The translations under genes and the position numbers were made by a program. The notes under the pieces are model-generated. The model was not told where the DNA came from. It worked only from the letters and a program-made list of their open reading frames with translations, and did not search any database. Source: a bacterium (GTDB lineage Bacteria > Patescibacteriota > Minisyncoccia > Phycocordibacterales > UBA5272). Taken from it: a stretch of 64,000 nucleotides of DNA. Below are positions 523-21,990 of the stretch, piece after piece; positions within the stretch are counted from its first letter, which is position 1, and each line of letters starts with the position of its first letter. Where the stretch lies: assembly GCA_043745785.1 (NCBI GenBank), contig JAYTSG010000004.1:570-64569 (forward strand), written 5' to 3'.

Positions 523-1302
523 CTATTTTATTTTCTTTTGTTTTTTCTCTTCTTCTTTATACTCCTCTTGTTTATCTTCAAAAAAATCTTTGTCAGGCTT
601 GGTAATCTCACGCACGGCACGAGCTACAATAAATGAACCTTCCTTATCTCCAAAAATAAGAATCTCATCTCCCTGTACTATATTTGTATTATCTATAAAT
701 TTTGTTGTCTTGTCAGTACGAACCAAAGAGGTAACTCCATTTGACCCCAAGATGCTAAAAGTGACCCCTGTGCTTGTAGAAATAAGTGTTCCAACATGTA
801 TATGGTGTGACTCAGGACGAGCGTAGCGAGGAACAAAATCAAACCCTACAGCTTTCTCACTATGTTTCATCTGACGCAGTAGTAATGGATGCATTTGTGA
901 CTTAGCTACGACGAGTCCCGTAATACCTACAAAACCAATAACAAAAAGAAATAAATACATTAGTGGTAATCGGTAGACAGAGAAAGTATTTTTTGCGAGT
1001 AGCAACAGTGTAAACAATGAGACCAGTGACAGTAAAACTATTTTCCAGGGCAAATCATTTAAAATAGTCATGATACCAAAAAAACCAAAAGGAGACATGA
1101 GAAAGATACCACTCTTTGAAAGAGCGAATAGTATAAAAGAAATAATATAAAGTAATGCTAAAAAAAGAATAGCAATACCAGAGACAGCAACCGCTGCGCG
1201 CAAGAAGAAATAGAGTTTACTATGGGGGGTAATCTTATCGGTATCTATCTCTTGCATTATTCTCTCTTTCAAAGAGTTGTATTTTTTTTCTAGTTCTTTC
1301 AT
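523..1302 (-). CDS. Membrane protein, putative anti-sigma factor partner of the ECF sigma (N-terminal TM helices, C-terminal ~90-aa soluble domain)
   Basis: 259-aa ORF with an ATG start. It lies 9 bp downstream of the ECF sigma gene in the same orientation, the usual sigma/anti-sigma arrangement. Several hydrophobic helices are present in the N-terminal half. No recognisable catalytic motif. Confidence 0.4.
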   Translation of the reverse strand: MKELEKKYNSLKERIMQEIDTDKITPHSKLYFFLRAAVAVSGIAILFLALLYIISFILFALSKSGIFLMSPFGFFGIMTILNDLPWKIVLLSLVSLFTLLLLAKNTFSVYRLPLMYLFLFVIGFVGITGLVVAKSQMHPLLLRQMKHSEKAVGFDFVPRYARPESHHIHVGTLISTSTGVTFSILGSNGVTSLVRTDKTTKFIDNTNIVQGDEILIFGDKEGSFIVARAVREITKPDKDFFEDKQEEYKEEEKKQKKIK

Positions 1303-3525: not shown

Positions 3526-3600
3526 AGGTGCTCATTGTAGCAAGAAAAAAAGCCTTGCGGAACTTGTTTTTTTTGAAAAAAATGGCGGTTGAGGAGTGAG

Positions 3601-3634
3601 TTCTAGGTTCTAGGTTCTAGGTTCTAGGTTCTAG
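3601..3634. repeat. Tandem heptamer microsatellite (TTCTAGG)x~5
   Basis: The sequence ttctaggttctaggttctaggttctaggttctag is read directly. It lies ~75 bp upstream of the ATG of the 2908..3525 gene, in its putative promoter region. Confidence 0.9.
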
Positions 3635-3860
3635 AAAGATTATGTCACTTTCAAAAATTTCAAACTTCCAAGTATTTTCATTCTTGAACTAGTAAGTTCA
3701 CATCTTGGATGCTGCGAAGGCAAGAATCCAGTATATGAAATCCATCATCATACGTTAATGTATACCTCAACCACTTTTATAAGATCTCAAGTATTTTGGT
3801 TCACCCCTCGATACTCATGCGAAATCCAGGTTGCAAGTTGCATAATTTTTACAAACAAAA

Positions 3861-3885
3861 AAGCTCCCTAGAGAAGCGGAGCTTC
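3861..3885. terminator. Hairpin terminator (AAGCTCC...GGAGCTT) flanked by A/T runs
   Basis: The + strand reads aaaaaagctccctagagaagcggagcttctttt, giving a 7-bp stem. The minus-strand reading ends in TTTTTTG. It marks the left boundary of the GC-rich island. Confidence 0.5.
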
Positions 3886-4184
3886 TTTTGGGAGCCTTGG
3901 GGCTCGTCCTATCTAAGTAGGAAGCTGATTGATGAGCCAGATAAGTACTGGGAACAGGAAGATGGTTCCACAGATGGAGAACCGAAAGGCTATAGCTTTG
4001 CGCCTCGCCACTTCGGCGTCGCTCATGTTGGACGGGTTCATGTACGTGCCTTCTTAACCGAAGTCAAGATGAGCAAGGGCTTTGCGCTCTCGTACTGTGG
4101 TACCGGAGAATTCACACATTTCCGGCGGAAGTCCAACGCCATGGGGCTCATCAAACCTTCTGATGAGCCGACAACACCGGTGAT

Positions 4185-4403
4185 CTACCAGCGAAAGTCT
4201 GGCGCGCTCATCAGCTGCGGACAGGTCACCTGCACCCACAATATGGACATGTCGGACATGATGCGGGACTTTTCAAGCAGTTCAGACGGTTTGAAAGACT
4301 TGTGCACCGCGCTCGGTTGCGCGTAGGTCGCCGCTGAGAAGCAGCAACCGAGGACAACGGCGGCAAGGAGAACAAGGACGGACTGGCGAGAAATGTGGAA
4401 CAT
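4185..4403 (-). CDS. Small (72-aa) putative secreted or lipoprotein-like peptide encoded inside the GC-rich island
   Basis: An ATG at 4403 gives MFHISRQSVLVLLAAVVLGCCFSAATYAQP..., a classic signal peptide with an LGC lipobox-like motif. Codon usage is GC3-rich, unlike the rest of the window. No homolog recognised. Confidence 0.3.
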   Translation of the reverse strand: MFHISRQSVLVLLAAVVLGCCFSAATYAQPSAVHKSFKPSELLEKSRIMSDMSILWVQVTCPQLMSAPDFRW

Positions 4404-4771
4404 GATGGATCTTTCTGTGGTCGTTAGGGGGGGTTGAAAAGGGCGGGAAACTTTAGTCTTTACTATATCATAATTAAGTATAAAAGTCAATAGTAAAGTG
4501 CTAGTTTTAGGCTCTCTTTCCTTTAAAAAGCTTTACAAATCAACAATATAGTCAATAATTTTGTGAAATAGTTTTGTTACAAATATACCCTCTTTTATCT
4601 TTTCTTTTACCTCTAAAATAACTCTTATTCAACGAGTAAATCTATTCAGTGGGATGACTAACCTTCACTTCATATGGCTTTAGACTTTTTTCAAAACTCT
4701 GACAGCCCAAGCTATCTCCTTTAGCTCTTTAAGGATAAACTTCACTCATTAACAATAATTTTTCAAAAAAT

Positions 4772-5575
4772 ATGGAAAAAGAATCAAGCATGCTCTTCAA
4801 ATTAAAAGAAACTATCTTCTCACCACTCGTGCTATTTGGATTTCTCATTCTCGCTGGATTCATTTTTTCGGGACTCATGTTTAAGTCTGGTCTCTCTGAT
4901 ATATCGGTACTCACCAATGCAAACGGTATCACCGTCTCTGGTACGGCAGAAAGATTTGTAAAAAGTGATAGAGGGTCACTAAGTCTGTCACTAAAAACAA
5001 GCTCACTCTCTCTTTCGGATGCTGAAGCGCAAAAACAGCTATCAGTTGCTCGCGAAGCTCTTGTAAAATACCTCGTCACTAAAGGTATCGATGAAAAAGA
5101 GATTGATGTTTTACCCTACACTTCCTCCCTTGAATGTTCAATGCGGCAGTCAAATAACTGGGAAAATTGTCTAGGCAAAAAATATGCTGAATACAGCCAA
5201 ATACTTAATCTTGCCTCAAATGACGTTTTAAAAATAAAAGATTTTTCGCTTAACATAAACTCAAACGTAAATGATACGTTGAAAAAAGAATTTGCTACTA
5301 CCGAACTTACTATACAAAATACGCAGTACTTCTATACAAATATCTCAAAGATAAAATCCGAGATGCTTAATGAAGCTACAAAGAATGCCTTTGAGAGGGC
5401 AGAAGCGATTGCAAAGAGTACAGGAAATAATGCAGGTGCTGTAATCACTGCCTCAAATAAGGAGTTTTCCAGATTACCACCAAGGATAGCACTGATAGTC
5501 AAGATTATGGATCGTATGACACTTCAGCCATTGAGAAGAAAATCACTGCAGTTGTTCGTGTTAGCTTTAAGGTGA
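4772..5575 (+). CDS. SIMPL-domain (DUF541 / BP26 / YggE-like) periplasmic protein with N-terminal membrane anchor; apparent frameshift near 5455-5465
   Basis: The N-terminal TM is followed by ITVSGTAERFVKSDRGSLSLSL...AEAQKQLSVAREALVKYLVTKGIDEKEIDV, typical of the SIMPL family. The canonical C-terminal strand (...SAIEKKITAVVRVSFKVK*) is in the +2 frame, ending at 5580. This indicates an indel around 5458-5462. Confidence 0.7.
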   Translation: MEKESSMLFKLKETIFSPLVLFGFLILAGFIFSGLMFKSGLSDISVLTNANGITVSGTAERFVKSDRGSLSLSLKTSSLSLSDAEAQKQLSVAREALVKYLVTKGIDEKEIDVLPYTSSLECSMRQSNNWENCLGKKYAEYSQILNLASNDVLKIKDFSLNINSNVNDTLKKEFATTELTIQNTQYFYTNISKIKSEMLNEATKNAFERAEAIAKSTGNNAGAVITASNKEFSRLPPRIALIVKIMDRMTLQPLRRKSLQLFVLALR

Positions 5576-7166: not shown

Positions 7167-10100
7167 TTAGTTCTTGATTGAGTAGCTTGCTGTAGGGAAG
7201 TTGTAAATCTTAACTCCGTCGTATGTTGTGTTACCACCAACAACGTCAGTCCACTGGAAATCATTAGCAGTATTGGTAACCTGTGTTGAAACAGATACCG
7301 TAGCTCCTGATACAACTGTTCCTGTAGGAACAGCGTAAAGACTGAAAGTCTTAGAAGATCCAGCTGAAAGTGAATATGCTGTTGAGAATGAACACGTAGT
7401 AACGGTTGAAGCGATTGTACACGTTACATTAGGAATCGTTGCTGAACCATCTGCGAGTCTTGCTGAAGCGAGAGTAAGAGCTCCTGAGAGTCCTGACGCA
7501 CCGCTTGAGAACTTGAGCTGGTTAACATTGATTGAACCATTAGCGTCTGGAACGACAGTAACTTCGCCAATCTTATTCTCAGCACCAAGGATGAGACCTG
7601 ATTTTTGAACTGTGTCAACAGTAACTGATGGCTTTGATGCAACGAGTGTCATTGCATTTGCTGAAATGGCAGTAGTTGTTGAAACTGTAGTACCATTTCC
7701 TGATGTAGCCTCAATGTAAGTAAGTGTCGTTGTTGAGATGACACCTGCTGTCAGTGATCCACCAGTTGAAGAATTCTTAAAGCCTGAGTACTTAACGGTC
7801 ACTGGTACATCGGTACCGTTGAGACCAATTGCAATACTAAGACCTGTTACCTTTGCAATACCACCTACGACTGAAGCCTGTACGCCATTAACAGTAACTG
7901 ACTCTACTGAATCATTTCCTGTAATAGAGAAACGAAGCTCACGCACGGTTGCGGCACTGTCTTGTGCAGTCTTGATCTTGTAGGTTGCTACATTACTACT
8001 GACGCCACCGACCACAAATTGTGAAACTGGTGATGATGAGACAATAGCAGGGAGACCAAGAGTTGCCGCTGTTGTTGTAATAGCGACACCAAGTCCTGTT
8101 CCAGAGACGGTAGTATTAGTACCTGAAACTGGTCCACGAGTTGAAAGATCAAGAGTTGCTGTAACTGTACCTGAAGTAACACTTCCTATATCTGCATACA
8201 CATCGAATGTCTTTGTTCCGTTCATAGGGACAACAACATCAGAGAATGAAATAACAGTTGAAGAAGCGCTCACATTTCCTACTGGAGTACCAAGAGTCAT
8301 TGAACCAGTCTTAAGTGAAAGGTTAGTGATATTGGTAAGAGGATAACCAGTAGTACTAAGCGTGACTGTCGCGCTGTTTACTACTGCATCTTCCGCTGAA
8401 TCAGCCTGAAGGGTAAATGAACCAATACGTACGTTTGCAGTATTTGGAGCAACGGTAGCTGCAGCAAAACCTGATGTGCGTCCGTAGCTTCCTACACCAG
8501 ATGAAACAGTAAGGTTGTTACCATTAACACCTGAGCTAGCAACACTCACGATCTCGCTTGAGCTTTGACCTTGAGCATTGTTACCTGCACTACTAAGCTG
8601 AGCTAGTACAGAACCTGCTGTATAGCTTACTGATGTAGTTGACTTGATGTCAGCCTTTACCGATACAGTGACTGTCTGTCCTGCAGGGATAATGAGTGAT
8701 GAACCAAGATTATAGGTAAGAGCACCAGATGACCAGTTCTGTGAAGAACTGATTTGTCCACCATTGAGGTAAAGTCCTACGTTTGTAAGACCCGCCGCTG
8801 CTGGAGTCATTGAACCTAGTACTGGAGTGACATTAAGGGTATTAACCTTAACATCTTCTCCGTATGCCTTCATGGTAAATGAACCAATAGTCATGTTCGT
8901 AGCACCGCCAGTTACTTTACTAGCAACGAAAGCTGGGTCGACGTTCACAACCACGGTTCCTTTGTTGACGGTAATCTGTGGATATGCTGAGTTACTACTG
9001 TTAAGAGGTAGCGTTGCGACTGTTGCAGCAACGTTCACTCCAGTAAGATCACGATCTTCGAACATAAGGTCTGCCACGTTCTCAACTGAGAAAGTCATAG
9101 TACGGTTTGAACCTTTTACTATGTCTCCTCTCACATTGATAGTGTGTGAACCAGTGCGAAGGAAGTAAGGCATAGTCCCAAGATCAAAGACAACTTTATT
9201 GTTGTTCATTGCATTGATCATAGCTGGACCTGCAACCTTAGTGCCATCTACATAGAGTGAAAGATTTGCAACAGAGTCAACTGGTGCAGAACCGACAAAC
9301 TTAAAGGTAGCTGCCTTAAAGTAGACATCGCGAACACCTACACTTGCTGTTGCATCCCAAACGTTGTAGTTGGTTGTTCCAGCATCCACGGTGCGAGCAC
9401 CAGTGACAAGAGGGTTGAAGTTGACGCTTGCGGTAGTAATACCAGAAGCGACAGTAAGGGTGTTACCCATTACATTTGTGAAAGTAGAAGCTGCTGAACC
9501 CATAGCAGTGACGCTGTTGAGTTTAACACCAACTGCATTACCTCCAGATGTTGATGAAAGGTCAGCTCTAACAGTAATAGTACGAGTACCACTAACTGAG
9601 AAGAGTCCTGTTCCTGCATTAAAACGGATGTAACCACCTGTTACAACAGAAGCTGCGTCTGTAAGACGAGTGTTTCCATCGTAAAGGTATACGTTGTTAA
9701 GTGTAGAATCTGTAGAAACACCGATTCTTTGTAGTTCGATGTTTGTTACGGTTCCATTACCTTTGAAAGTAAAATCAGCGAGACGAGCTCCTGACTGTCC
9801 TTGTACAAGCTGTCCTGTAGGCTGTGATCCTGAAAGCATTACAGATACTGGACCTGTGTTACCGGTAGGTGGTACTGGATTTCCCGGTGTTGGCACAGGG
9901 TTACCAGTAACTGAACATAGCTGATTGAGGAGACCACGAGTTCCTGCGAACACGTTTCCTGTAGGAGAGTTGATTCCGAGTTCAGCAAGCTGAAGCATCT
10001 GGAATTTATTAACAGCGGCACGAGTAGCTGGACCAAACTTACTGGTTTCCATTCCTGGAGATCCAGCACCTGATTCAGCGACACGTGTCTGAGGGTACAT

Positions 10101-10283
10101 GTTAAGAACTTTTTGAAGATTCATGACTTGTACTCCTTTTGAACCCATCTTCATGTTCGTATTGAACACGTAAGAACAGTTCATGGTTGGAAGGGCGAGA
10201 GCTGCAGATGCTGTTGAAGCACCAACGATAGCTCCTCCTAGGGCTACTGCAATTGCAGCGGCCTTGATTGAGAGTTTACTCAT
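7167..10283 (-). CDS. Large secreted cell-surface protein: Sec signal peptide, N-terminal peptidoglycan-binding (PGBD-like) domain, Pro-rich linker, then ~900 aa of repetitive Thr/Ser/Val/Gly/Asn-rich beta-sandwich (Ig-like) repeats
   Basis: 1038 aa. The signal peptide is MSKLSIKAAAIAVALGGAIVGASTASA. The PG_binding_1-like segment is GSKGVQVMNLQKVLN...SKFGPATRAAVNKFQ. The linker is NPVPTPGNPVPPTGNTG. The remainder is low-complexity repeats, so the many antisense ORFs in the track are artefacts. Confidence 0.8.
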   Translation of the reverse strand: MSKLSIKAAAIAVALGGAIVGASTASAALALPTMNCSYVFNTNMKMGSKGVQVMNLQKVLNMYPQTRVAESGAGSPGMETSKFGPATRAAVNKFQMLQLAELGINSPTGNVFAGTRGLLNQLCSVTGNPVPTPGNPVPPTGNTGPVSVMLSGSQPTGQLVQGQSGARLADFTFKGNGTVTNIELQRIGVSTDSTLNNVYLYDGNTRLTDAASVVTGGYIRFNAGTGLFSVSGTRTITVRADLSSTSGGNAVGVKLNSVTAMGSAASTFTNVMGNTLTVASGITTASVNFNPLVTGARTVDAGTTNYNVWDATASVGVRDVYFKAATFKFVGSAPVDSVANLSLYVDGTKVAGPAMINAMNNNKVVFDLGTMPYFLRTGSHTINVRGDIVKGSNRTMTFSVENVADLMFEDRDLTGVNVAATVATLPLNSSNSAYPQITVNKGTVVVNVDPAFVASKVTGGATNMTIGSFTMKAYGEDVKVNTLNVTPVLGSMTPAAAGLTNVGLYLNGGQISSSQNWSSGALTYNLGSSLIIPAGQTVTVSVKADIKSTTSVSYTAGSVLAQLSSAGNNAQGQSSSEIVSVASSGVNGNNLTVSSGVGSYGRTSGFAAATVAPNTANVRIGSFTLQADSAEDAVVNSATVTLSTTGYPLTNITNLSLKTGSMTLGTPVGNVSASSTVISFSDVVVPMNGTKTFDVYADIGSVTSGTVTATLDLSTRGPVSGTNTTVSGTGLGVAITTTAATLGLPAIVSSSPVSQFVVGGVSSNVATYKIKTAQDSAATVRELRFSITGNDSVESVTVNGVQASVVGGIAKVTGLSIAIGLNGTDVPVTVKYSGFKNSSTGGSLTAGVISTTTLTYIEATSGNGTTVSTTTAISANAMTLVASKPSVTVDTVQKSGLILGAENKIGEVTVVPDANGSINVNQLKFSSGASGLSGALTLASARLADGSATIPNVTCTIASTVTTCSFSTAYSLSAGSSKTFSLYAVPTGTVVSGATVSVSTQVTNTANDFQWTDVVGGNTTYDGVKIYNFPTASYSIKN

Positions 10284-11453: not shown

Positions 11454-12290
11454 CTAACGAAGCACATATCTACTCCATCTTTTTTCACCAATTCTTTCAA
11501 GGACATGGTCAAAGACAAGTGTATTGAGTTCTCTCTGTATTGTTTTTTCACTACAACCTTTTATCTTGCTTGATATGTCTTTTATACTCACATCTACACC
11601 TACAGAGAAGAGTCCCAATATTTGTTCCCTTCTACTCTGCTTTCTAGCTTTAAATATTCCCGCTGGAATTTTTCTTTCGATTACCATTCTTTGATACTGA
11701 TAGGGAGAGCTAACATTTTCTTTGTTTGTTTTATCATCTAATTTCATCGTATAAGCTTCTCCTGTTGTCAGAGCTTCACTCTTTTGTGTAGGTTTAGTTA
11801 TCAAATTTTGATCAGCTTTTTCTTCTACGAAAACTGCTCCAATACCTTCTTCCTTAGGGACAAATGTTGGAGGTAACCCTACAGAATGATTCTTTGCCTC
11901 GGTGAGCACTATGTCATCTTCTTTTAAAAGAAGGGCACTCGAAAAAGTCGGGCGTCTTTTTTGGAGAGCGTTACTAAGGACATTGAACCCTTCGACGAGA
12001 AGTCTTCCGTTCATCTCAGAGACAGTCCCTGAGAAGGTTGCAACATGCAGAAGTGAGACAACTTCTCTTACTTCATTTAAAGACAAAGAGTATTCACGAG
12101 CAATGTCACTTGTTTCAGAAGAGGCAACTTTAGTGACATGTCCAAGTATACTCAAAGCTGAAGATCGAAGTCTATTTTTTATAGGATCTTGAGCACTAAT
12201 TAAGTCAGTAACAAGATAAAGGCCCGTCACTAAACGCTCTGTTTTCTGTGCTATCAAGACTTCCTGTTGTGTGTTTTTTGTCTCTGACAT
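11454..12290 (-). CDS. Putative transcriptional regulator: novel N-terminal domain plus C-terminal winged-helix HTH (DeoR/ArsR-like)
   Basis: 278 aa with an ATG start. The C-terminus ...RREQILGLFS...VSIKDISSKIKGCSEKTIQRELNTLVFDHVLERIGEKRWSRYVL is an HTH followed by a wing. The gene is flanked by 1.2 kb and 0.75 kb of repeat-rich non-coding DNA. Confidence 0.5.
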   Translation of the reverse strand: MSETKNTQQEVLIAQKTERLVTGLYLVTDLISAQDPIKNRLRSSALSILGHVTKVASSETSDIAREYSLSLNEVREVVSLLHVATFSGTVSEMNGRLLVEGFNVLSNALQKRRPTFSSALLLKEDDIVLTEAKNHSVGLPPTFVPKEEGIGAVFVEEKADQNLITKPTQKSEALTTGEAYTMKLDDKTNKENVSSPYQYQRMVIERKIPAGIFKARKQSRREQILGLFSVGVDVSIKDISSKIKGCSEKTIQRELNTLVFDHVLERIGEKRWSRYVLR

Positions 12291-15718: not shown

Positions 15719-16705
15719 ATGGAAAAATTACTTACTAAACATATACTTCTCTTTCTGAGTTCTGCTTTATCGCTTCTTGCATATGTTTACCATAGCGCTA
15801 ACGCTTTTTTAATACTCGTTGGCAGGTTCTTCCCTACAATAAAAGATACAGAGTACGGATTAGACGATCTCAGTGGTTCATTTTACGGCCCGCTCTTTAT
15901 CTCTCTGTTCTTTGGTATTTCGTTTGTTATTTTGTATTTTTTCTTTCTTAAAGAATCATCTGAAGAGAATGAACTACTTTCTGGGTTGAGACGTCTTTTA
16001 AAGCTGTTCTATGTTCTAACTCTTATTACCTTTGTACCATTCACTCTTTCTTCCCTTTTTATTCTAGGAACATACAAGCAGGCTATCTATACACTTCTCT
16101 TTTTGATAACTCTCTTTTTATTAACTGGACATCTATTCTTCTTACCTAAACTAATAAAGAAAAATATTATCATAAACGCGTTTTTACCAGCTCTGATCCT
16201 TCTCCCAATTGGAATGCTCAGCCTTGGCATAATCACCTATGGTACACCTCACGAGAGGTCACTCGCATTATTAGATCTACAAAAAATACACCGTATTGAT
16301 ATTGTTGCAAGCTCTGTACCCTCTTTTGTTTCAGAGAAAAATAGACTACCGGAGACACTAGAAGAACTTTCTAACTCGATGGATGATATGGATAATACTA
16401 ACTCTTCTTCTTATGAGAAGAAGAGTTTTTTCGACCCTGAAACAGGAACTTACTTCATTATAAAAGATTATGGGGATAAACTTTTGTCACCAAACACTCA
16501 GAATAACTACCCTGTAGCAGATGGTTTGCATACAAAAAGATATGGCATTTGCACCGTCCTGCATCTCGACTTCGAGAGAATTACCTTCCTCCTTGGTAAG
16601 GACTACTTAGTATCGAAAAGTAGAGCAAAGGCTGGTACTTACTGCAAGATGTCTGATTACACAATATTTGACCAAGCTAACACAATTAATCCCCCTTACG
16701 AGTAA
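15719..16705 (+). CDS. Hypothetical polytopic membrane protein
   Basis: 328 aa. ~6 predicted TM helices are followed by a soluble C-terminal domain. No recognised family. Confidence 0.45.
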   Translation: MEKLLTKHILLFLSSALSLLAYVYHSANAFLILVGRFFPTIKDTEYGLDDLSGSFYGPLFISLFFGISFVILYFFFLKESSEENELLSGLRRLLKLFYVLTLITFVPFTLSSLFILGTYKQAIYTLLFLITLFLLTGHLFFLPKLIKKNIIINAFLPALILLPIGMLSLGIITYGTPHERSLALLDLQKIHRIDIVASSVPSFVSEKNRLPETLEELSNSMDDMDNTNSSSYEKKSFFDPETGTYFIIKDYGDKLLSPNTQNNYPVADGLHTKRYGICTVLHLDFERITFLLGKDYLVSKSRAKAGTYCKMSDYTIFDQANTINPPYE

Positions 16706-20892: not shown

Positions 20893-21990
20893 TTAAAGTT
20901 TGCTTACATCTTGTTGACAAGAATACAATTGATTTCCTCCTGTTAATCCAGCTTGACTGCAAGTGAGGCCTGGTCCACAAAATTTATTATTATGAGCTTC
21001 TGGATTACAATATGATCTCTCTTTTAATTCCTCTGCTCCAATAGCGCAATATAATTGCGCTCCTCCTTGGGCATAACATTTACCAGCGTCTCCATTAAAA
21101 GAACAATTTGCCCATAGACTTTTACCATAGCACGTTTCTCCGTTTGATATGCCTGTACTTGGGACTTTACAATAAAATCCGCCGTAAAGATTACTATCAC
21201 ATGTGCCTTTTGTCCCTCCATTATCAGTACATGACTCATTTTGAGTAGAACAATTGGCGTCATCTTGTACAGAAACAGGAGCAGTGCCACCAGCACAGAA
21301 AAGAGCCGTGCGATTGGCATTGTAAGCACAACCCCCACTGATAGTTCTTCTATCATCGTCTCTAAAGGTACAAGGACTTCTTTCCCCTTTCCCGCTACAT
21401 GCATCAAGGGACGCTTGATTGACATTCACAGAACTCACTGCCTTAACAGTACAGAGCACTGGACCGAATGCATTGGAACAAACCCCTACTGAACCATTGG
21501 GTAATGTACAACTTGCTCCGACCTGTTTCCCTGGAGACTTTGCACAATCATCAGAGACTTCGGACTGCGGATCTATCGACTGATTGGTTGGAGTAAGTCC
21601 AGTCGAAGTTTTAGTGCAATCCGTCACAAAATTGAGGCATGGCTTTGCTATTGTGGTAACATCTTTAATCCCCAGCGTCTGCTGCATAAAGTAGATAATG
21701 CCATAGAGAGAGAAGATGATAAAGATAGCAAGGAGAGACCAGAGCATAAATTTTTTTCCTTCATCTGCTTTTTTTGCTTCCCCTTCTTTGATAGACCAGA
21801 TGAATCTGACGAGGCCAGCAAAGAAAGCGACGATAGCAAGAGACATAAGGAGCACTCCGACGACAGCAACTACATTGCCGTTGACGTTTTCTATGAACTT
21901 GCCGAGTTCGTTAACTTGTACGGAAGAGAAGCCGGAGGCAGATGTGTAAGAGAGGGAGAGTGAGGCAAGAAAAATGGTGAGTAGTCTCAT
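20893..21990 (-). CDS. TrbC/VirB2-like pilin-fold N-terminal domain (signal peptide + two TM helices) fused to a ~250-aa extracellular domain with ~38 cysteines
   Basis: The signal peptide is MRLLTIFLASLSLSYTSASG. TM1 is VVAVVGVLLMSLAIVAFFAGLV, followed by a short charged loop. TM2 is FMLWSLLAIFIIFSLYGIIYF. The C-terminal ectodomain is rich in C, G, S, T and N, with many CxxxC / GxC spacings. Confidence 0.6.
   Translation of the reverse strand: MRLLTIFLASLSLSYTSASGFSSVQVNELGKFIENVNGNVVAVVGVLLMSLAIVAFFAGLVRFIWSIKEGEAKKADEGKKFMLWSLLAIFIIFSLYGIIYFMQQTLGIKDVTTIAKPCLNFVTDCTKTSTGLTPTNQSIDPQSEVSDDCAKSPGKQVGASCTLPNGSVGVCSNAFGPVLCTVKAVSSVNVNQASLDACSGKGERSPCTFRDDDRRTISGGCAYNANRTALFCAGGTAPVSVQDDANCSTQNESCTDNGGTKGTCDSNLYGGFYCKVPSTGISNGETCYGKSLWANCSFNGDAGKCYAQGGAQLYCAIGAEELKERSYCNPEAHNNKFCGPGLTCSQAGLTGGNQLYSCQQDVSKL

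Follow-up and report, generated by a model that had tools for sequence, protein, structure and literature searches.

Horizontal transfer into the reduced genomes of Patescibacteria (the candidate phyla radiation, CPR) is documented (PMC12455944). The closest parallel to the locus described here is provided by small, horizontally acquired islets of 'ORFan' genes in such genomes. We analyzed a 64,000-nucleotide stretch of a patescibacterial genome (contig JAYTSG010000004.1, assembly GCA_043745785.1; hereafter the window) and focus on a G+C-rich island of ~600 nt near its left end. The island is probably a bicistronic unit on the minus strand with two short coding genes of foreign codon usage, here called open reading frame (ORF) 1 and ORF2. 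This cassette resembles the CPR islets in its atypical composition amid core genes, in its short genes without annotated function and in its variability between strains. The published transfer cases are defined by a donor-recipient pair, whereas the cassette is only ~0.6 kb long and comes with no integrase, tRNA, flanking repeats or identifiable donor.

A second point of comparison is provided by small operons that pair a Sec-dependent bacteriocin with a small membrane immunity protein, as in divergicin A with its immunity gene. By analogy, the cassette would match such operons in gene order and sizes, a small precursor with a signal peptide being closely followed by a small membrane protein, in having its own promoter and terminator, in being strain-variable and in looking foreign. 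It differs from them in that it shows no similarity to known bacteriocin or immunity families, its mature peptide is not markedly cationic, and the intact ORF1 is longer, with ~92-101 mature residues.

At the level of the individual products, ORF1 begins like a bacterial Sec/lipoprotein signal peptide (lipobox, PROSITE PS51257-type), sharing a basic n-region residue, an uncharged core, VVLG-Cys20 and TYA/Q, although the match is at the pattern level only, the Leu at position -2 is less usual, and the mature part has no family. Type I toxin-like hydrophobic peptides are marked by a length of <60 aa, a single transmembrane helix, a cis-encoded antisense RNA and toxicity; of these traits, the small size and a helix can be read from the ORF2 translation.

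Composition and reading frames of the island

The features on which the coding interpretation turns are as follows:
3886-4455, no strand: G+C-rich compositional island, 54% versus 39.6% G+C in the window, with the excess concentrated in one codon phase
4038-4403, minus strand: ORF1 at full length, as seen in other strains; 121 aa, or 118 aa in L006 owing to a 9-nt in-frame deletion (4245-4253)
4185-4403, minus strand: ORF1 in its truncated window allele, 72 aa followed by TAG; periodicity p = 0.0007, G+C at third codon positions (GC3) 0.74
3913-4041, minus strand: ORF2, 42 aa, MNPSNMSDAEVARRKAIAFRFSICGTIFLFPVLIWLINQLPT; phase-matched G+C peak, p = 0.03, GC3 0.67

An earlier note on the window had singled out a GC-rich stretch in an AT-rich background, and the windowed G+C profile bears it out. 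The region 3886-4455 contains 54.0-54.4% G+C, compared with a window mean of 39.6% (s.d. 3.3% in 550-nt windows), and is the most G+C-rich 550-nt stretch of the 64 kb, ~4.5 s.d. above the mean. The excess resides in every third base, where G+C reaches 0.67-0.74 versus 0.32 in native genes. From ~4060 to 4403, G+C is 66-87% at coordinates divisible by three and 40-55% in the remaining two phases. From 3910 to 4060 the G+C peak is shifted to the next phase, the change from class 0 to class 1 occurring near 4040-4060. Since this is exactly the point of handover from ORF1 to ORF2, the pattern fits two ORFs on the minus strand.

The GC3-rich codons that the same note had seen in the 72-aa ORF are also real: GC3 is 0.74 in this form, 0.69 in the long ORF1 and 0.67 in ORF2, against 0.32 ± 0.04 (maximum 0.43) in 47 native ORFs. 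G+C at the first and second codon positions (GC1 and GC2) of the island ORFs is near native, and a GC3 shift with near-native GC1 and GC2 is the look of a foreign gene with other synonymous codon usage. When compared with dinucleotide shuffles, three-base periodicity is significant for the truncated ORF1 (4185-4403, p = 0.0007), for the long ORF1 (4038-4403, p < 0.0003) and for ORF2 (3913-4041, p = 0.03).

ORF2 runs from ATG 4041 to TAG 3913 and, from its translation, has a basic N-terminus followed by one hydrophobic helix; its product would be a 42-aa single-helix membrane peptide. The 72-aa ORF had been put forward as the only protein-like feature of the stretch, but the unit comprises ORF1 and ORF2. 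Judged from its sequence signals, the island would thus be wholly transcribed and coding from promoter to terminator, rather than an island with one tiny gene.

Strain variants and the truncated ORF1 allele

The island, both of its borders and the adjoining SIMPL gene are present in four Logan contigs, L001, L004, L005 and L006, which derive from four different runs (SRR22198275, SRR23617274, SRR22198270 and SRR23617267). Together with the window these make up the five variants compared. L001 matches the window at 99.94% identity, and each strain's contig is marked by single-nucleotide polymorphisms (SNPs) and indels of its own.

The variants bear directly on whether the island is an assembly chimera, which the earlier note had listed as a candidate, or contamination joined into the contig of an AT-rich genome. 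The abrupt change of composition is the sole point in favor of a chimera. Because independent contigs from other runs span both borders and hold the island with both flanks and with polymorphisms of their own, and because the border elements, promoter and terminator, are of the host's own style, we regard a chimera as scarcely credible; as far as the contigs can tell, it is refuted.

One variable site decides the length of ORF1:
4185-4187, minus strand: polymorphic codon, TAG stop in the window and L001, TAC (Tyr) in L004, L005 and L006

At position 4185 the window and L001 have C, whereas L004, L005 and L006 have G. The 72-aa ORF from ATG 4403 is therefore present as the earlier note had it, but it represents a 121-aa ORF cut short by a nonsense mutation. 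In L004, L005 and L006, the TGA of the long ORF1 (4040-4038) overlaps the ATG of ORF2 as ATGA (distance -4), and this overlap of stop and start suggests translational coupling of the pair. In the window allele, the ORF1 stop lies 143 nt from the ORF2 start with no ATGA overlap. Thus, the intact 121-aa ORF1 would be translationally coupled to ORF2, whereas in the window strain the change of TAC to TAG would cut ORF1 to 72 aa and uncouple ORF2; both alleles occur among the five variants. ORF2 itself is intact in all five.

Besides the 9-nt in-frame deletion in ORF1, the L006 island has lost one C from a C7 run in the leader (4427), and substitutions at 3887, 3889 and 3896 all fall within the stem region of the terminator. 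In total, the L006 island has 7 SNPs and 2 indels in 570 nt, compared with 1 SNP in 927 nt of the left flank, the latter counted in contig L013 of the same sample.

Among L001, L004, L005 and L006, the sites 3991, 4032 and 4185 vary, and between 3991 and 4185 each of the four possible pairings of alleles is seen across the variants. This points either to recombination among co-existing strains or to contigs that are mosaic, mixed-strain consensus sequences.

Predicted signals for transcription and export

Both ends of the island carry signals oriented on the minus strand, at opposite edges:
4462-4490, minus strand: predicted promoter, with -35 TTGACT (4490-4485), a 17-nt spacer and extended -10 TGATATAGT (4470-4462)
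4404-4455, minus strand: inferred C-rich 5' leader of ~52 nt; L006 lacks one C of the C7 at 4427
3853-3898, minus strand: intrinsic terminator, with a stem at 3898-3860, then UUUUUUGUUU and a T-run to 3853 on the minus strand only
4317-4403, minus strand: predicted ORF1 signal peptide, MFHISRQSVLVLLAAVVLGCCFSAATYA, read from the translation

The element at 4490-4462 matches the hexamers at 10 of 12 positions (TTGACT-17-TATAGT) in addition to the TG, and sits in the AT-rich flank just outside the island. It is a putative promoter of the host's extended -10 type: TGnTAnAnT is approximately three-fold enriched in intergenic DNA, with 23 of its 48 copies in the intergenic 24% of the window. At the other edge, the terminator hairpin has a folding energy of -26.8 kcal/mol (z = -4.1). 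The hairpin terminator proposed in the earlier note at 3861-3885 thus exists but is larger than described, taking in the whole stem and the T-run. Each of the three substitutions in L006 improves the stem, bringing it from -26.8 to -37.7 kcal/mol. Minus-strand transcription would start ~7 nt past the extended -10 and end at the hairpin and U-run. A pair of genes captured from a higher-G+C organism would have been placed under a native-type promoter.

Throughout the window, TGnTAnAnT lies 7-9 nt before the ATG of many genes that have no Shine-Dalgarno sequence. Examples of the extended -10 are found at 63847-63839, 42095-42087, 32409-32401, 29810-29802, 28252-28244 and 3542-3534, and the sequence suggests that leaderless mRNAs are widespread in this genome. 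ORF1 has no ribosome-binding site upstream either. This is no argument against it, because the Shine-Dalgarno sequence is generally absent in this genome.

ORF1 opens with MFHISRQSVLVLLAAVVLGCCFSAATYAQP, in which R6 is followed by an uncharged hydrophobic core of 13 residues, SVLVLLAAVVLG, and a lipobox-type VVLG-C20; an alternative site for signal peptidase I is present at TYA/Q. The signal peptide with a lipobox-like motif that the earlier note had read at ATG 4403 is therefore present as a sequence pattern. It passes a heuristic rule requiring a basic n-region, an uncharged h-region of at least 10 residues and then a lipobox or a small-x-small cleavage site. Dinucleotide shuffles of the island yielded 6,737 ORFs that start with ATG and reach 50 aa or more, of which only 5 (0.07%) pass. 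In the window itself, the rule also accepts five other ATG-started ORFs, at least four of which are long native ones. AlphaFold, run on the single sequence, predicts residues 6-27 of ORF1 as a helix. The ORF1 product would probably carry a Sec-type signal peptide with its lipobox at Cys20 and be exported, and then be either lipid-anchored or cleaved after TYA.

The plus-strand reading frame

Opposite the two minus-strand ORFs runs a longer frame:
3796-4326, plus strand: ORF of 176 aa, called as a protein in public collections (P0001-P0004) and read here as a shadow ORF

The earlier note had listed two long ORFs that overlap each other, 3796-4326 (+) and 4185-4490 (-), and both are present as it stated; it took the plus-strand frame to be spurious, and this is probably correct. 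The antisense strand of a gene with G+C-rich third positions tends to stay open, which is the classic geometry of a shadow ORF and a well-known artefact of gene finding. The plus ORF conforms to it with no substantive difference: the third positions of its codons fall on those of ORF1, it ends where a Tyr codon on the sense strand comes after a codon ending in C, and public sets likewise call it as a protein.

If the plus ORF (3796/3817-4326, 169-176 aa) were instead the real gene, the minus-strand ORFs would be its shadows. In its favor, no other frame stays open for as long and none of the variants interrupts it, its likelihood over codon positions 1-2 is mildly positive (+9.7), and its amino-acid composition looks globular. 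Yet the 146 codons that are open within the island are not beyond chance for this composition (p = 0.095). The frame lacks an in-island start codon ahead of 4069; it would have to start in AT-rich DNA and then pass through the 18-bp stem of the terminator. There, the three changes in L006 are non-synonymous in the plus ORF and fall within four consecutive codons (FFWEPW to FSRELW). Since they perfect the stem yet alter plus-ORF residues, this part is constrained as a hairpin and not as protein.

The remaining evidence points the same way. A promoter-like site upstream of the plus ORF and a terminator downstream of it were looked for on the plus strand, and neither was found. The region 4327-4455 is left uncovered by the frame though equally G+C-rich, and it holds a signal peptide on the opposite strand; because the signal-peptide segment lies almost wholly beyond the plus-strand stop (4324-4326), it is not a shadow of the plus ORF. 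Over 3913-4041, the G+C peak falls on the first codon position of the plus frame and not on the third.

Homologues of the plus ORF were confined to near-identical copies in a word-indexed search of 5.8 billion proteins, and phmmer, run in full against 1.84 billion representative proteins, matched only the ORF itself. Its entries in public collections are four near-identical sequences only, located on L001, L004, L005 and L006, and its AlphaFold model (single sequence) has a mean predicted local distance difference test score (pLDDT) of 35. A plus-strand gene is thus improbable, and the frame is best read as a shadow of ORF1. For annotation, this means that the public sets call the wrong strand at this locus: the 169-176-aa 'protein' is probably a shadow, while the likely real genes are both too short and too atypical to be called.

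RNA structure and repeated motifs

The island could also specify a minus-strand RNA of ~600 nt that is structured or has a dual function, with UGAUGAGC/GCUCAUCA repeats forming alternative helices of a switch or attenuator. In favor of such an RNA, a promoter and a terminator mark the precise limits of the G+C-rich stretch, in a genome that is otherwise AT-rich, and the stretch contains repeats. The 7-mer GATGAGC/GCTCATC occurs five times in the island (3931, 4068, 4146, 4162 and 4206; p ~0.003). Its self-complementary copies allow several long-range pairings that exclude one another in the minus-strand RNA, and there are two palindromes, perfect or imperfect, at 3975-4010 and 4145-4169, of which the second forms a hairpin:
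4145-4169, minus strand: perfect palindrome hairpin, GGCUCAUCA-N7-UGAUGAGCC, -16 kcal/mol, z = -4.05

Folding of the whole unit gives z = -2.3 to -2.7 on the minus strand (120 shuffles) and z = -0.2 to -1.2 on the plus strand, and with the terminator included the minus-strand value is z = -3.6 (20 shuffles). Taken separately, however, the two halves of the unit fold no better than shuffles on the minus strand (z = +0.3 and -1.4). In 13 native coding segments of equal length the mean z is -0.96 (s.d. 1.03), and since these reach -2.7, the folding of the island is within the range of native mRNA and unexceptional. Rfam (release 15) gives no match at the gathering score in the whole 64-kb window, and at E ≤ 10 it returns for 3700-4600 only four weak matches, all to the terminator hairpin and far below threshold. 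The linked SNPs at 3991 and 4032 are not complementary to each other, and neither the strong three-base periodicity nor the signal peptide would be expected in a pure RNA gene. The structured non-coding RNA considered in the earlier note therefore goes unsupported, and we hold this explanation to be very unlikely.

Two of the GATGAGC copies share a reading frame of ORF1 at a distance of 60 nt, and the stretches that contain them, LMSAPDFRW and LMSPMALDFRR, are similar. This likeness may reflect an internal duplication, and a part for the motif in a regulatory RNA is conceivable.

Two further candidates were rejected. Hammerhead-like CUGAUGAG motifs were considered as a ribozyme but have the wrong helix II/GAAA geometry and no Rfam match, and a recoded stop as an explanation for the broken minus-strand frames is at odds with in-frame stops that mix TAG, TGA and TAA. 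No tRNA or tmRNA genes were found in the 64 kb with ARAGORN.

Homology and origin

Almost all of the extra G+C of the island is found at third codon positions, which makes acquisition of the pair from an organism of higher G+C content the most likely origin. Searches for relatives were made at several levels. The island ORFs gave nothing below E = 0.1 against Pfam, NCBIfam, PADLOC and PHROGs, including the bacteriocin, immunity, defence and phage families, and no meaningful match to the sequences of the PDB. Phages and plasmids (blastn and tblastn) and viral contigs (scan) returned no match, and neither did a scan of genome and metagenome contigs with the island ORF or a scan for related loci with the 205-aa neighbor. 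A scan with the neighboring SIMPL gene detected two distant loci in Saccharibacteria metagenome-assembled genomes (MAGs), at 54% and 33% identity; the closer of these, L002, shows no synteny and no island.

With no donor or homologue found in these searches, a foreign origin is argued from composition, and on composition alone the pair was probably acquired horizontally. The horizontally acquired gene for a small secreted peptide that the earlier note had listed first among its candidates is thus favored, with the amendments that there are two ORFs, that the 72-aa form is truncated, and that the island would be transcribed and coding over its whole length. Very small foreign-looking inserts can, on this evidence, lie within the core chromosome of reduced genomes and be recognized by third-position composition and strain variants even where homologues are lacking.

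As for a route of entry, no integrase, tRNA target or flanking repeats beyond short low-complexity ones were found that would make the island mobile. The similarity between 3534-3560 and 3845-3902 was considered as a target-site duplication and rejected, as it is short, of low complexity and judged to be due to chance.

Function, decay and the weight of the evidence

Several observations weigh against the interpretation of the island as a functional coding pair. ORF1 and ORF2 have no homologue in the word-indexed search of 5.8 billion proteins, for which the 101-aa and 121-aa forms of the minus-strand ORF were used; the coding case accordingly depends on statistics and sequence signals. The likelihood over codon positions 1-2, sense versus antisense, leans slightly toward the plus strand, with -3.5 for the long ORF1 compared with +9.7 for the plus ORF, a measure trained on native genes on which both score far below the native means and on which 11-17% of hydrophobic native segments also fall below 0. 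Taken by itself, the part of ORF1 that lies 3' of the TAG has no significant periodicity (p = 0.25), and AlphaFold shows no confident ORF1 fold past the signal helix. The five-fold GATGAGC and the palindromes are not accounted for by a plain coding model. Inside the ORFs, the five variants differ by only three SNPs and one in-frame indel, too few for a test of purifying selection. Lastly, the nonsense allele, the frameshifted neighbor and the raised diversity suggest relaxed selection.

These last points lead to a serious alternative, in which the island is a non-functional relic: foreign coding DNA that was inserted and is now decaying, so that its periodicity and signal peptide are historical and it yields nothing of use in this strain. 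The nonsense allele is carried by the window and L001, the L006 island is more diverse than the left flank, the adjoining SIMPL gene is frameshifted and in L006 lacks 237 nt, and no homologue was found, all of which would fit a dispensable or decaying element. What speaks for continued function is that none of the five variants has a damaged ORF2, promoter or terminator, and that the terminator is even better in L006. Moreover, the length of the indel within the ORFs is divisible by three, GC3 shows no drift to the host level, and three of the five variants retain the full ORF1 with its ATGA junction. A relic is on balance unlikely. The region, including the frameshifted SIMPL gene, nevertheless looks variable and is possibly decaying, and the cassette appears to be dispensable in this lineage, where it may be undergoing decay.

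For the bicistronic coding unit that we favor, a role can be offered as a guess: an accessory factor, secreted or displayed on the surface, accompanied by a small membrane partner. Provided that its products are made, the pair is a candidate for a surface or secreted factor that varies between strains, in a lineage about whose interactions with other cells little is understood. A bolder version would make it a functional new two-component module of an ultra-small bacterium of episymbiont type, a label taken from the SIMPL relatives in Saccharibacteria MAGs. In such a module an exported or lipid-anchored effector would be coupled to the 42-aa membrane partner, for instance as a toxin/immunity pair or one for host contact. 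Its source would be a higher-G+C organism, perhaps the host itself, and TAC/TAG on/off alleles would be segregating in the population. We consider this quite doubtful. Current knowledge is not overturned by the cassette, which is ordinary in kind, being a small foreign-looking insert with short ORFs; the truncated allele, the shadow ORF miscalled in databases and the untraceable origin are its instructive details.

Neighboring genes and other observations

The neighbors of the island are core genes, encoding an extracytoplasmic function (ECF) sigma factor, an MscS-like channel, L10/L12, FtsK, RecA and elongation factor P (EF-P). Elsewhere in the window, the long ORFs at 7167-10283 (-), 11454-12290 (-), 15719-16705 (+), 20893-21990 (-) and 523-1302 (-) have no Pfam match at E ≤ 1e-5. 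One of these unmatched ORFs is 1038 aa long and has a signal peptide according to the heuristic rule.

The SIMPL/DUF541 gene (4772-5575) that adjoins the island contains a frameshift toward its 3' end, near 5455-5462. Its conserved C-terminus, GVFQITTKDSTDSQDYGSYDTSAIEKKITAVVRVSFKVK, is encoded in another frame and matches the L002 homologue. The frameshift is common to L001 and L004, the variants that cover the site undeleted. In L006, this gene has also lost 237 nt in frame (5212-5448), and 20 SNPs are clustered at 4963-5050.

A perfect tandem repeat, (GTTCTAG)5, is located in intergenic DNA at 3600-3634, 250 nt outside the island. Most of the Logan contigs fetched for this organism end inside it, which makes it an assembly breakpoint, and its copy number may vary.

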